NCBI GenBank assembly: GCA_964016885.1
Contig: OZ024742.1
Span: 349,060,001-349,124,000, forward strand
Length of the DNA: 64,000 nucleotides
Reading direction: 5' to 3'
Source: Eledone cirrhosa
Taxonomy: Eukaryota
Shown: positions 3,491-17,253 of the stretch, in pieces
Layout: every line of letters starts with the position of its first letter
Position numbering within the stretch: the first letter of the stretch is position 1
The notes under the pieces: generated by a model
Database searches by the model: none
What the model was told of the DNA's origin: nothing
What the model saw: the letters and a program-made list of their open reading frames with translations, nothing else
Position numbers and translations under genes: made by a program

Positions 3491-3567
3491 AGGTATCGGT
3501 TCAAACGAAAGAAAGATGTGGAAAATGATAATATTATATTAGCCGTTATATCTATCTTCCTATCTAT

Positions 3568-4752
3568 CTTCTAACGGAGGGCTGGGCATGCTGTGGTTGA
3601 TGATGCGCAAATACGCGCTAAGGCTACGCCTTCTCCAGGTATTCCTGGCCGCCGATCCGCTGCGGCTGTCGTTTGTGAGACGAGCTCTTCCTCAACTCGT
3701 CTCACTAACAGAGCTGCAGTCCTGTGTCAAGCGAAGACCGAAAATGGGTGCCTGGCACCTCGAGTGCCTTCAGGCGCTCACAGCCTGTTCTACCAAGCGG
3801 AAACGGCAATAAGCGGAGACTCCACCTCGACATTCTATAGGGGATTAGTGGAGGATAAGTGCGACGACGTTCTCGGGGAATCTCTAGACATCGAAGAGGA
3901 CGAACTGACCAATCTGTTCGGGGATCTTTCCGTCCAGGGCCTATGGATGACTTCCAGAGGTCTCTGGCCTGGCAGTGCTACCGCGGAGCTCTACCAGTTC
4001 GAGATAAGATCTTCAGGCACGGACGCCCTGGCAGAGATCCTGCCAAAAGGACTTGTTCAAGATGCGAGCAGGACATCGAAACCGTTCTGCACTCAATTAT
4101 TCATTGCCCAGGGGTGACCGAACTGTGGGATTATGTCGAACAGCTACGGTTACGTGTGGGACGCATCCAGTTGTCAGCCGAGTCCATCGTGAGGATCACC
4201 CCGCCGCTTTCATTTAAGAATGACGGAGAGTCGGTCTTCCTCTGTCTGGTGGCTATGGCGAAAGAGGTAATATTGTGGACAAGGTTAAAAGGACTGAGGG
4301 CAAACAGCTTTCTCTCCGGACAACAACTTATCCCCTTCTTTAAGTACCACTCCAGAAGGAAGATGAGAGTGGAGAGAGAGGTGCTACACCCAGTAAATTC
4401 GCTGAACGGTGGGTGAATGTGGCGAAAATAGCCCGAGTGAATGGGCCTTCTCTGTATATATACCTGTAGGTTGAGGAAGACAAATAGAGGGAAGACGGGA
4501 ACACTTACAAAACGTGTTCCTGTTGTTGAGGGTTGTTCTATCCACGGGGTGTAAAACAACCCCGCAGCAACGTTCCCCCCTATTGAGGGCTTCGATTGTT
4601 TTATTTTGTAAATATTTTATTGTTATCCATTATCATTGTTCAAGATTTTTATGTAAAACCCCCGCCGTCACGTCTTGTAATGTCCCATTTTTGTACGCCC
4701 CTGTGGCAAATAAACAAATCTATCCATCTATCTATCTATCTATCTATCTATC
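3568..4752 (+). mobile_element. Tx1/L1-clade non-LTR retrotransposon unit A, 5'-truncated: ORF2 C-terminus, 3' UTR, AATAAA, (TATC)n tail
   Basis: Starts abruptly after tatctatc at cttctaacggagggctgggc, which matches unit D near 16059. Frameshifted ORF2 end with CSRC-X8-H-X4-C and stop TAG at 4467-4469. AATAAA at ~4709, then (TATC)n at ~4719-4752. Confidence 0.9.
3571..4469 (+). pseudogene. Unit A ORF2 C-terminal fragment (frameshifted)
   Basis: Pieces in three frames (ORFs 3588, 3593, 3859) align colinearly with the ORF2 C-terminus of units C and D: PGPMDDFQRSLAWQCYRGALPVRDK...CSRCEQDIETVLHSIIHC. Confidence 0.85.
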
Positions 4753-4964
4753 TCGTATAGTATAGACGTGTATAACATCGGCTCCTGCCTTTTTGAAATT
4801 TTACCCATTGACAGTAAGTGTTTGTCTCTTTATTGTGTTGTCTTCGTGCCTTTTAACCACCCGGCTAGGTCTGTAGACGGGTGGTCATCGTATTTTTACC
4901 CCGTTTGGGGGTAAAAACTACTCCAAAAATTTTTTGCTGACTCACATGGTAAAAAATTGACGCC

Positions 4965-13521: not shown

Positions 13522-16500
13522 ATGGCCAATATAAGAGTTGGATGTGTGAACGTACGCGGCCTGGGGATACCCTGGAAACAGGGCAAACTCTTAAACGACC
13601 CCAGATCGCACAGTATGGATGTGGTAGCCATTTGCGAGTCCAGGATCCACAGCGAGCGACAGCTGGCCCCCATCTTCGATGACTTTGAGATCTACGCTCT
13701 CTCTCTGTCAACCGGGGGGGGTGGGGGCGGAGTTGCCGTTTTGCTGCGGAAACACCTGGGCCTCGTAACACAGACGGTACATCTGGACCCGGAGGGTCGA
13801 CTGGTGGTCCTAGACGTTGACGGTAGTGAAGGTGGAGCCTTCAGGCTGGTGGCCGCATATGCCCCATCCGGGACACCGCGACCAGACTTCTTCAAACGTC
13901 TAGAGACTTTTCTGGGAACGTCCCGCTCCTTGCTTTTAGTGGGGGACTGGAATGGAATCCTAGATGCACGTGTGGACTATGTGGGAGCATGTCCCGATAA
14001 AGAGGGGTGTAACAGCCTCAAACAGTTAATCGACCGATTTGACCTGGCCGATAGATATCGACTAGATTTTCCGACTGCGCCACTGTGGACGTGGAGTAAT
14101 CGTAGCGGAACATCTAGATCGTACCTAGATAGAGTTCTAGTTAGAAATAAGGATAGGGACATGTTAAGCTGTCCACAAATGTTCATGGTTGCCTATTCTG
14201 ATCACAAACTAGTGACCTGCATGGCCAACCTTGATAGAACCCATAGACAAGGATCCGGCTACTGGAAGCTGAACTTGTCGTTACCGACAAGCAAAGCCTA
14301 CAGTAGACGGATTAGCACTTTAGTTAAACAGCACTTGACAGGGGCCATTGTCAACAACAGATGGTGGTACTCTCTCAAGTGGGCAGTTAGATTAGACTCG
14401 TTAGTTTTTAGTAAAGAATTAGCGTTAGATAGAAATAGAACCGAGAAGGAACTGGTAGATAAAGTTGAAGAGGCAATTAGAAGTGGCAACGTAGCCAGTG
14501 TGCTAGCAACGAGAACGGCCTTGGACCAGTTTTTCGACGCAAAGCACGAGGGCAGCGTTGTCAGAAGCAAAATACGTGCTCTGGGAAACGAGGGAGCCAA
14601 AGCTGTTAGCTGGGCCCGAGTGACGGAGGCAAAAAGTGGCAGCAAGTCCACGATTCGGTCTTTGAAGGACCAAAACGGACGCGTTATACGTGAGCCGAAG
14701 CAGATGTGTGCGGCCTTTCAGCAGCACTTTGCTCAACTGTTCGGGCGGGGCGGCGCGCCGGGAGGGGCTATGGATTTCGGTCCATACCTCGACGGCCTAC
14801 CGCGACTCTCGGACAGCGAGGCAAAGTTCTGCGAAAAGACGATTTCAGCCGCTGAGATAGGGGACGCGTTGAGCTAATGCGGCAAACACAAATCTCCAGG
14901 TCTCGACGGTCTACCCTACGAATTTTACGTAGCAATGCCGGACTTATTCTCCGGTCTCCTGCAAGCGGTCTACTGCAACTGGCAACAGAACGGGAGAATT
15001 CCCAGTTCTGTAACCGGGGGCGTAGTCACACTAATCAGGAAGGACGAGAATAAGGGGGATGACATAGGCAACTTCCGGCCCATAACTCTGCTAAACACAG
15101 AGTTACAGATTTTGGCCAAGGTGTTGGCAAAGAGGCTGGCGCTTGTCGTCGAGAACCTGGTGGGAGAAGCGCAGACATGCGCAATCCCGACCAGGTCCAT
15201 ACACGACAACCTCCACCCCATGCGATACATCATAGAGAGGGTAGGATGTAAACCCAGCTTCGGTGGGGCCCTGATCAACTTGGATCAGTCTAAGGCTTTC
15301 GATAGGGTTGACCATCGTTACCTGGATGCGGTGCTCGAGGCGGCAGGCTCCGGACCCGTGTTCAGGGGCTGGAATGCTGCAATGCACAACAGCAACATCT
15401 GCTCAAGGGTCAAGGTGAACGGCTACCTCTCGGAGCCATTCCATATTACGCGATCCATTCGACAGGGATGCCCTCTCTCCTCCCTTCTGTACGTACTGAC
15501 TCTCGAGCCACTACTGCGGAAGTTGGAGCTATTGCAGGGCATCCCTCTGGAACCGGGACTGCGGAAAGCGGCGTCGGCCTACGCCGACGACGTGACAGTA
15601 ATGGTGTCGAGCGCCTCGCAAATCGAGGAAGTCGGCACCTTACTGAAGGAATACGAAAGTTTCACAGGAGCGAAGCTGAACCGGGACAAGTCCATCGGTT
15701 TGCAACTCGGATCGTGGAGAGGCAAACCGATGCCTTCCGATGGCGTCGTCGGACGCTGGACGGAAGGACCGGTAAAGCTGCTTGGGGTCTGGTTTGGTCC
15801 GGACCTCCAGGTGGAGAAGAACTGGAACGAAGTGACAGCCAAGGTGTTTGCACTCACCCAGAAGTGGGCCGAGTGCAAACTATCCTTGAAAGGTCGAGCG
15901 GAGGTGGCGAACACTTTTATAGCGTCCGCCATCTACTACCGCTTGACCGTCGTGCCTTGTCCAGCCAAAACGCTCGCCAAAATGGAACGCACGCTCTTCC
16001 AATTCCTTTGGAAGAGGCGGGCTCCTTTGGTGAGAAGATCAATCTGCTGCCAACACCCTTCTAACGGAGGGCTGGGGATGCCGTGGTTGACGATGCGCAA
16101 ACACGCGCTCAGGCTGCGGCATCTCTACGTATTCTCACCGGACAACCGGTGTGGGCCCCGTTCGTGAGGCGAGCCTTCCCACGACTCGTCTCGCTGACCG
16201 AGCTGCAGTCCTGGGTCAAGCAAAGACCGAGGAAAATGGGCGACTGGCACATCGAATGTGCTCAGGCGCTCACAGCCCTCTGGCAGGCGGACCCGGCGAT
16301 CAGTGGAGACTCCACTTCGTCATTCTATAGAGGGTTGATCCGCAGCAAATGCGACGACGCGCTCGGTGAAACTCTAGGCGTAGAGGAAGATGAACTGGCC
16401 AGTCTGTTCGGTAGGACCTTCCACCCGGGACCGATGGACAACTTCCAAAAGTCCCTGGCCTGGCAGTGCTACCGAGGAGCTCTACCAGTTCGAGACAAGC

Positions 16501-16914
16501 TCTACAGACATGGGCGCCCGGGCAGGGACCCTGCACGCATTCATACACTGCCCGGGCGTCACTGACCTGTGGGGCTATGTAGAACGACTATTGTCGCGGG
16601 TGGGACCAATCCGGTTGACCACCGAGTCCATTGTCATGATCAAATCGCCACCCTCCTTCAAAAACGAAGGAGAGGCGGTTTTCCTTTGTGTGATAGCTAT
16701 GGCGAAAGAGGTTGTATGGTGGACAAGGTTGAAAGGGCTGAGGTCAGACACCTTTCTCTCCGGCCAACAACTGATTCTTTTTTTCAAATACCACTTTGGA
16801 AGAAGAATCAGGATGGAGAGAGAGGTGCTCTACTCCAGCAAGTTTTATGAAACGTGGGTGAAAGTGGCGAGAATGACCCGAGTGAATGGGCCTTCTCTCT
16901 ATATCAGCCTGTAG
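13522..16914 (+). pseudogene. Unit D ORF2: APE endonuclease and reverse transcriptase; inactivated
   Basis: CVNVRGL, ICESRI, VGDWNG, SYLDRVLV, SDHKLV, FRPITLLN, LDQSKAFDRVDH, RQGCPLS, AYADD. TAA at 14875-14877 (CAA in unit B), 1-nt deletion at ~16133, and a ~40-nt deletion at ~16532 removing the CxxC of the zinc finger. Stop at 16912-16914. Confidence 0.93.
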
Positions 16915-17253
16915 GTTGAGGAAAAGGAGGAGGAGAGGAAAGGAGTACAAACTCTTCGTACTCCTGGAGATGAGGGTTGCACATTTTTTTCGGGGGTATG
17001 TGTTACTCATATAAACTGTCTCCCCCTATTGGGGAAAATCGACTAACTTTTTAAATTGCATTTGTGATAACATTTTACACGTTTTTATTGTATGTAAACT
17101 CCCCCTTTGTATTTGTCCCCTTCTTTTGTGCCCCTGTGGCTAATAAAGAAATATATCTATAAATATCTATAAATATATATAAATATATACACATACACAT
17201 AATTTAATTTAGTATTTATATATAACTGTGCGTTCGTCTGTGTGTACTATAAA

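Follow-up and report, generated by a model that had tools for sequence, protein, structure and literature searches.

Some retrotransposons of the Tx1 clade, which lack long terminal repeats (non-LTR elements), insert into simple repeats. In teleosts, Kibi targets (TC)n and Koshi (TTC)n, and crocodilian Tx1 elements target (TTCC)n/(TTTC)n (PMC4494074, PMC3812793; cited papers are used here as far as the available parts of their text go). Elements have been classed as target-specific when more than 20% of their flanks are one sequence type (PMC4494074). Here we describe a family of L1/Tx1-type long interspersed nuclear elements (LINEs) from the cephalopod Eledone cirrhosa, found in a 64,000-nucleotide stretch of the 3.0-Gb genome (C3:349060001-349124000, hereafter the window), where four units, A to D, lie on one strand and fill positions 3569-17153. 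This family goes into (TATC)n in a fixed polarity, with target left on both sides. Like Kibi and Koshi, it is a non-LTR element with an apurinic/apyrimidinic endonuclease (APE), a reverse transcriptase (RT) and a preference for a microsatellite well over the 20% mark; unlike them, it uses (TATC)n, has sister lineages in (ATT)n and in a satellite, and has pure (TC)n at only 2 of 58 full-length flanks.

The tandem arrangement has a precedent too. Copies of SINEU-3 and Tx1-Mar lie in tandem around a target-site duplication (TSD) through sequential insertion, and the short interspersed nuclear element (SINE) has the target of its partner LINE (PMC4494074). The present arrays likewise sandwich a TSD between tandem copies, and here too a SINE and its probable partner LINE have a common target; the target there, however, is a Mariner transposon, whereas here it is an expandable microsatellite and the arrays mix many subfamilies. 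Tx1 targeting of microsatellites, satellites and transposons is already known, as is tandem insertion around a TSD (PMC4494074). In octopus, L1-Tx1 elements are numerous and have been active recently (Octopus vulgaris has 80 families, 13 of them with recent activity; PMC13282606). The available text of two cephalopod repeat annotations (PMC13282606, PMC8967140) mentions no target specificity for L1-Tx1, and the window families are probably catalogued in cephalopod repeat libraries without their targets. A literature search, with Repbase and Dfam outside it, returned no TATC-specific Tx1, no target-specific Tx1 from a cephalopod and no target switch.

Insertion into (TATC)n tracts

Insertion junctions were collected from the best genomic matches to the 5′ ends of units B and D and the 3′ ends of units D, A and C, with 60 loci extended to 10 kb. 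The queries were free of TATC tracts except for 6 nt in one. Most loci are best matches to the window units, together with their neighbours, rather than a random draw, and the positional samples are confined to 30 sites and 100 sites. Junction calling gave 224 distinct units, 41 of which run off the 5′ side of their locus and are left out of the 5′ counts.

A TATC 8-mer lies within 40 nt upstream of 28/29 B-type and 27/29 D-type primary full-length matches (55/58, none in reverse orientation, window excluded); the two D-type exceptions have pure (TC)n 5′ flanks. The same 8-mer is found at the 5′ junction of 106/146 truncated units (1/146 in reverse) and 33/37 full-length units, and on the 3′ side of 184/224 units. 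By comparison, it occurs in 0.14% of 199,380 background windows (20 stretches, 200 kb, at round coordinates) and beside 1/120 copies of a SINE-like repeat in the fetched loci. Truncated copies with no family member upstream still have it in 38/73 cases. At the 3′ side, the order AATAAA-GAAA-NN-TATCT holds in one fixed register in 188/224 units (TCTCT in 4/224), and the NN dinucleotide is typical of the subfamily. The share of flanks in (TATC)n is far over the 20% single-sequence-type mark in full-length and truncated copies alike. An earlier reading of the window from its letters alone (the sequence-only reading) had proposed insertion into (TATC)n with target left on both sides and different subfamilies stacked at one site, and the junction counts, the TSDs and the mixed arrays described below bear it out. 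It had named random 5′ flanks as a sign to the contrary; the flanks are instead strongly enriched and oriented.

Is the (TATC)n tract behind each unit a tail that the element encodes, or is it target? The tracts are duplicated, expanded target, because TATC stands at truncated 5′ junctions, where no tail is possible, and because no tail has been added at an empty site. In 20/68 informative truncated copies, 3′ flank sequence that differs from the repeat is found again at the 5′ junction, as a non-periodic TSD of at least 12 bp; for mismatched pairs the rate is 2.5% (of 4,516). A small number of these 20 TSDs count as weak, being periodic or duplicated. The clearest are 15-17 bp, and the target is duplicated on insertion by ~16 bp. 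At locus L214, whose flank is a multi-copy repeat, contigs join position 1453 to 1571, skipping 117 bp, with 17 bp fitting both sides. In this paralogous empty site the duplicated sequence is present once; the insertion is 100 bp that end just past GAAA with no (TCTA)n. The contigs of runs X1-X3 come from one sample, probably the assembled individual, and are therefore not independent; at L067, where an empty allele was looked for in the contigs, they carry the insertion. Imperfect targets (L157, L109, L215) show their own sequence directly after NN.

The four units and their junctions in the window are laid out as follows.

3549-3568, + strand: left target flank, an imperfect TATC repeat, TATCTATCTTCCTATCTATC at the 5′ junction of unit A (sequence, TRF)
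3569-4720, + strand: unit A, 5′-truncated, C-terminal part of open reading frame 2 (ORF2) and 3′ untranslated region (UTR); oldest subfamily; ends AATAAA-CAAA-TC (sequence)
4721-4752, + strand: (TATC)n target tract between A and B (TRF)
4753-10133, + strand: unit B, 5′ end intact (lead, then AGACGTG at 4764), 3′ end missing (sequence)
10131-10133, + strand: B/C junction, AAA microhomology, target tract absent (sequence)
10131-11231, + strand: unit C, 5′-truncated, with internal deletions; ends AATAAA-GAAA-TC (sequence)
11232-11340, + strand: (TATC)n target tract between C and D (TRF: 30.8 units, 11229-11351)
11341-17153, + strand: unit D, full-length, AGACGTG at 11352; ends AATAAA-GAAA-TA (sequence)
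17154-17186, + strand: right target flank, imperfect, of the TATCTATAAA type (sequence, TRF)

The sequence-only reading had recognised four same-strand units of one APE-RT LINE family, with A directly after TATCTATCTTCCTATCTATC, and this stands. Its tracts between units are present at A/B and C/D, two of the three internal junctions, and there is none at B/C. The ends that it gave for A and C, AATAAA-(C/G)AAA-(TCTA)n, are correct up to -CAAA-TC and -GAAA-TC; the (TCTA)n that follows is target, as the L214 empty site indicates. What it took for a decayed atatctat tail of D is better read as NN plus imperfect target (TATCTATAAATATC). In unit B, ORF1 (4947-6741) is broken and has a CCHC knuckle, and ORF2, with APE and RT, runs from 6766 with a stop at 7333-7335. 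In unit D, ORF1 (11572-13488) has a stop at 12739, and ORF2 (13522-16914) has a stop at 14875 and frameshifts. Unit B ends ~283 bp before the family 3′ end, and the 3-bp AAA at the join is common to B and C. Outside the units, a 31-bp satellite of ~1,350 copies takes up two thirds of the window (22248-64000), and a 55-bp tandem repeat (~16 copies, 93% matches) lies at 18452-19325.

Head-to-tail arrays

Among the first 100 3′-end sites on C1, adjacent pairs no more than 6.3 kb apart lie on the same strand 24 times and on opposite strands once. A uniform null gave a mean of 1.2 such pairs and a maximum of 6, and 4 of the 24 same-strand pairs belong to the satellite array of lineage T described below. 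Arrays at chance level, which the sequence-only reading had named as evidence against itself, are thus not what is found. A family end stands just upstream of 9/29 (B) and 16/29 (D) primary full-length matches, and one 10-kb locus (L161) holds six 3′ ends. Adjacent pairs are of different subfamilies in 48/65 cases. In the window, the ORF2s of B and D are 80.5% identical, 245 of their 446 differences fall at third codon positions and dN/dS is 0.19. The two units therefore diverged as active lineages and, as the sequence-only reading had held, are not a recent tandem duplication.

TSDs place some insertions in the 3′ flank of an older copy (L106, L111, L136). At other loci (L161, L115, L086; by eye), they place insertions in the 5′ flank, and the duplication then takes in the opening bases of the downstream copy. 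Both flanks are sites of array growth, and the subfamilies in an array are mostly mixed. The earlier idea that arrays are built in the element's own tails does not survive, since the tracts are duplicated target and growth occurs at the 5′ flank too. Identity to the nearest fetched copy is 90.7% for A, 96-97% for B, 96.9% for C and 97-98% for D; A, being the most diverged, suggests itself as an insertion older than B, C and D.

Element identity and sister lineages

ORF2 has a catalytically complete N-terminal APE domain (PF03372, E 9.6e-13), with motifs N, E, Y, D/N, D and H conserved and aligning to L1, and an RT domain (RVT_1, E 6e-25). The C-terminal zinc motif is weak (zf-RVT, E 0.094) and is annotated on the homologs P0001-P0003. 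Among solved structures, L1 ORF2p gives the best match, which spans the whole query (endonuclease, linker and RT; E 4e-48); R2 matches the RT only. In ORF1, zf-CCHC scores E 0.0015-0.0033, weaker than the Pfam cut-off, and C-x2-C-x4-H-x4-C is invariant in 6/6 ORF1s. As to RNA-binding domains in ORF1 resembling those of fish and frog relatives (ZCCHC3-like), the ESM Atlas score to a ZCCHC3-like cluster is 0.90 and profile comparison with hhalign gives 3%. By its domains, the architecture is L1/Tx1-type, and membership of the Tx1 clade is likely. Homolog searches gave no named Tx1 reference (Tx1L, Keno, Kibi, Koshi), and the deep nodes of a quick RT tree join fish, frog and plant elements without resolution. 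Among named proteins, the closest comes from Argonauta hians (59%). Beyond octopod-like sequences, the nearest relatives are unnamed ENA proteins at ~40% identity (P0004-P0097, in clusters of up to 732 members). The family has the same APE scaffold as Tx1L of Xenopus and human L1, and its hairpin equals that of L1 in length (PMC1950540); it differs from them in having no poly(A) tail, a CCHC-type ORF1 and specificity for a repeat rather than for TTTT/AA or Tx1D.

The genome contains 17,369 exact matches to a 15-mer of the 3′ end (reversed control, 20), a count that leaves out B-type ends and takes in lineage T, and there are at least 17,000 family 3′ ends. Unbroken ORF2s of 1,149-1,153 codons exist at loci outside the window, and the APE domain (residues ~1-240) is intact at L171 (B-type), L154 (D-type), L348-L349 (T-type) and L263/L264 (S-type). 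Many more 5′UTR types accompany related ORF2s (L121, L123, L124, L125, L129, L217, L224), which suggests repeated 5′UTR replacement. A splice-donor-like GT(A/G)AGT stands at the ORF1 stop, and a run of pyrimidines comes after it, ahead of the ORF2 ATG (window 6738-6765 and 13481-13514). B, D, A, F and S186 all retain this arrangement, and GTAAG recurs in the 5′UTRs. A set of 40 long copies has 18 internal deletions, and none of these was a spliced genomic copy at the conserved GT(A/G)AG sites.

Relatives ~70% identical to the family, with ends followed by (ATT)n, are present in two of the 20 control stretches. Among the best matches to one of them, the S lineage, an ATT 8-mer stands at the 3′ end in 28/30 and TATC in 0/30; (ATT)n precedes every one of the nine S-type 5′ ends found. 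In a positional sample of 30 ends (by eye; 4 unassigned), TATCT follows 8/9 D/C-type ends and ATTATT 16/17 S-type ends, with no crossing. ATT-targeting sister lineages (L186, L198, L231-L280) have the same 3′ architecture and form head-to-tail arrays too. The SINE-like repeat, which is abundant (window 2738-2930), has a 3′ end like that of the S lineage, sits in ATT runs and directly follows 10/30 S copies (by eye). It is probably a partner SINE mobilised by the ATT-type LINE.

A third and young lineage, T, lies in a 72-bp satellite. Its fetched 5′ ends join one satellite position in 30/30 cases, and its 3′ ends read GAAA-NN-ACTCT in 10/10, 7 of which pass a strict satellite string test. It has no TSD, its 5′ junction being 7 nt ahead of the site of the 3′ junction. 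The T 5′ motif occurs 285 times in the genome and, among 100 places listed, is clustered towards the ends of C1 and C2. In the T array at C1:4228500-4258200 (L348-L350; further T loci L351-L390), copies are 99-99.8% identical, and in one of them ORF2 is unbroken over 1,153 codons and a stretch of ORF1 is open for 475 codons.

Trees made by quick methods (a quick tree and FastTree, no bootstrap) group the TATC types as a single clade (support 100); T falls within this clade, S is its sister (99), and S186 branches outside, as does the Argonauta protein. From this branching, (ATT)n looks ancestral, with (TATC)n derived and the satellite derived again. The target would then have changed at least twice, from the (ATT)n of the outer lineages to the (TATC)n of the derived clade and to the 72-bp satellite in the nested lineage T. 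Endonuclease identity is 80% for T vs D, 78% for B vs D and 61-64% for ATT-lineage vs TATC-type enzymes. There are 17 T-specific endonuclease residues, including G116W, and 19 positions separate ATT from TATC enzymes, among them LCQ/VSR at 61-63 as well as S/I194, which sits at the tip of a hairpin that, in the L1-type endonuclease, is located in the minor groove (PMC1950540). These differences are candidates for target choice; shared ancestry explains them equally well.

Dong, an element of the R4 clade, has a restriction-like endonuclease rather than an APE. Its target is (TAA)n (PMC3812793), and Dong-R4 elements are abundant in O. vulgaris (PMC13282606, Table 1). The ATT-targeting sister lineage uses the same trinucleotide repeat class as Dong, but the TATC and ATT lineages both carry an N-terminal APE. 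Their likeness to Dong would be convergence on one target.

Mechanism, alternatives and implications

The arrangement is, with high probability, the result of independent insertions of a target-specific L1/Tx1-type LINE, whose APE likely chooses the site through a GATA-strand nick for target-primed reverse transcription, with the target doubled. The biochemical steps are those of the target-primed reverse transcription model, from which the mechanism is drawn. First, the APE domain would nick the GATA strand opposite C|TATCT. Second, the RNA 3′ end just past AATAAA-GAAA-NN would prime, with no poly(A). Third, a second-strand cut ~16 nt downstream would give the duplication. Each insertion would make two same-orientation targets from one, and slippage likely lengthens the tracts, so that later subfamilies would land beside earlier ones. 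Judged by divergence, unit A would have come first in the window, followed by B, C and D on its 3′ side, and the end of B and its tract would have been lost by a microhomology deletion at the B/C junction, at or after the insertion of C.

Several observations weigh against this account in its strictest form. The 8-mer is missing at 40/146 truncated junctions, the oldest subfamily, A, has it in only 17/39, and part of the targets are TA-rich or (TC)n; specificity is therefore a strong preference and not absolute. A clear TSD is lacking in 48/68 informative truncated copies. Five of 46 adjacent truncated pairs have one common 5′ breakpoint, three of them at 98-99% identity, which points to local duplication as a second, minor route to arrays. 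Among apparently truncated long S copies, ATT stands at the 5′ junction in 0/8 (by eye), and S is therefore less well shown than the TATC group; several truncated-looking long S copies resemble later deletions or other insertions (by eye). Lastly, RNA-target pairing or a tethering factor could contribute to target choice. That the endonuclease does the choosing is what we infer from the sequences.

In its full form, the pairing alternative holds that a relaxed endonuclease nicks AT-rich sites and that read-through 3′ RNA, carrying the repeat of the donor locus, pairs with the nicked strand. The fixed NN-TATCT register (188/224 ends) and the subfamily-typical NN are as it would predict, and the endonuclease of T is as near to that of D as that of B is, yet T has another target. 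The imperfect targets, however, show their own sequence right after NN, and ATT and TATC endonucleases differ in surface loops that include the L1 target-reading hairpin, a difference that shared ancestry also explains. We regard RNA guidance as unlikely to be the main determinant; pairing and endonuclease choice can act together.

A far less probable reading is that the element encodes its (TCTA)n tail and inserts without a target, arrays arising when units duplicate locally in tandem or when tails recombine. Near-identical duplicates with common breakpoints do make up a minority of the arrays, and the T array at C1:4.23 Mb is almost homogeneous. Against this stand the differing subfamilies of most neighbours, the low dN/dS between B and D, the TATC at truncated 5′ junctions and the L214 empty site, the last two of which rule out an encoded tail as the main route. 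Least credible of all is passive accumulation, in which random insertions are tolerated or retained in microsatellite-rich, low-recombination regions: simple repeats are plentiful in the window and at many loci, and the idea has been proposed for Drosophila Waldo elements (PMC3812793), but it is refuted by polarity (1/146 reverse) and base-level register, with the SINE control (1/120) and three lineages with three distinct targets in one genome also against it.

How does target-specific insertion relate to the element's 5′ end? The motif AGACGTGTRTAACWTCG is present in units B and D, at 4764 and 11352. The sequence-only reading had taken this as their common 5′ terminus; AGACGTG is common to both, and it is not the terminus, as B-type copies have a further common lead of 11-13 nt upstream. 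A motif of the RGACG/RGACAC kind, 2-16 nt past the target, is retained at some ten 5′ ends that otherwise differ. It is similar to the CGTG downstream promoter element (DPE), whose position is +25 to +28 in L1Tc and as a rule close to +28 to +32 (PMC4748587); a start site so placed would fall inside the target. Counting by hand upstream from the motif, an A that follows a T is met at 27 nt in five 5′ types, at 26 nt in four and at 25 nt in one. The phase between initiator and DPE is not constant, which is compatible with a start borrowed from the target and does not discriminate. A unique TSD was found in 0/9 informative full-length copies vs 20/68 truncated ones (p = 0.056), so that TSD loss in full-length copies is suggestive only. 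The last 17 satellite bases before the T 5′ end are near-invariant (3/510 vs 124/1,207 in other units, a figure raised by register errors). Both observations are consistent with a start inside the target, and target recognition would give the same pattern.

A joint reading of these data is possible, and we put it forward tentatively: two retargetings through a handful of endonuclease substitutions, a transcription start borrowed from the target, and seeding of GATA microsatellites. RGACG would be a DPE with the start 25-27 nt upstream inside the repeat, and full-length RNAs would carry ~16 nt of target that anneal to the staggered cut. If this is true, each target-specific insertion rebuilds its own promoter, and the family seeds a large share of the genome's long GATA microsatellites.

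What are the implications? First, family 3′ ends directly precede at least 17% of the TATC-phase starts of (TATC)4+ tracts (at least 4,776/27,717), a result of relevance to the origin of microsatellites, the design of markers and the annotation of repeats. Second, lineage T, with its single fixed satellite site, is a candidate natural system for site-specific integration. Third, how the APE endonucleases of LINEs gain sequence specificity is still open, and loop grafting between distant APE endonucleases did not transfer specificity (PMC1950540). Here, three targets are used by enzymes that are 61-80% identical. The short candidate list (19 positions and 17 T-specific residues) and the natural intact ORFs make the question directly testable. 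The main value of the family is this three-target series within one genome.

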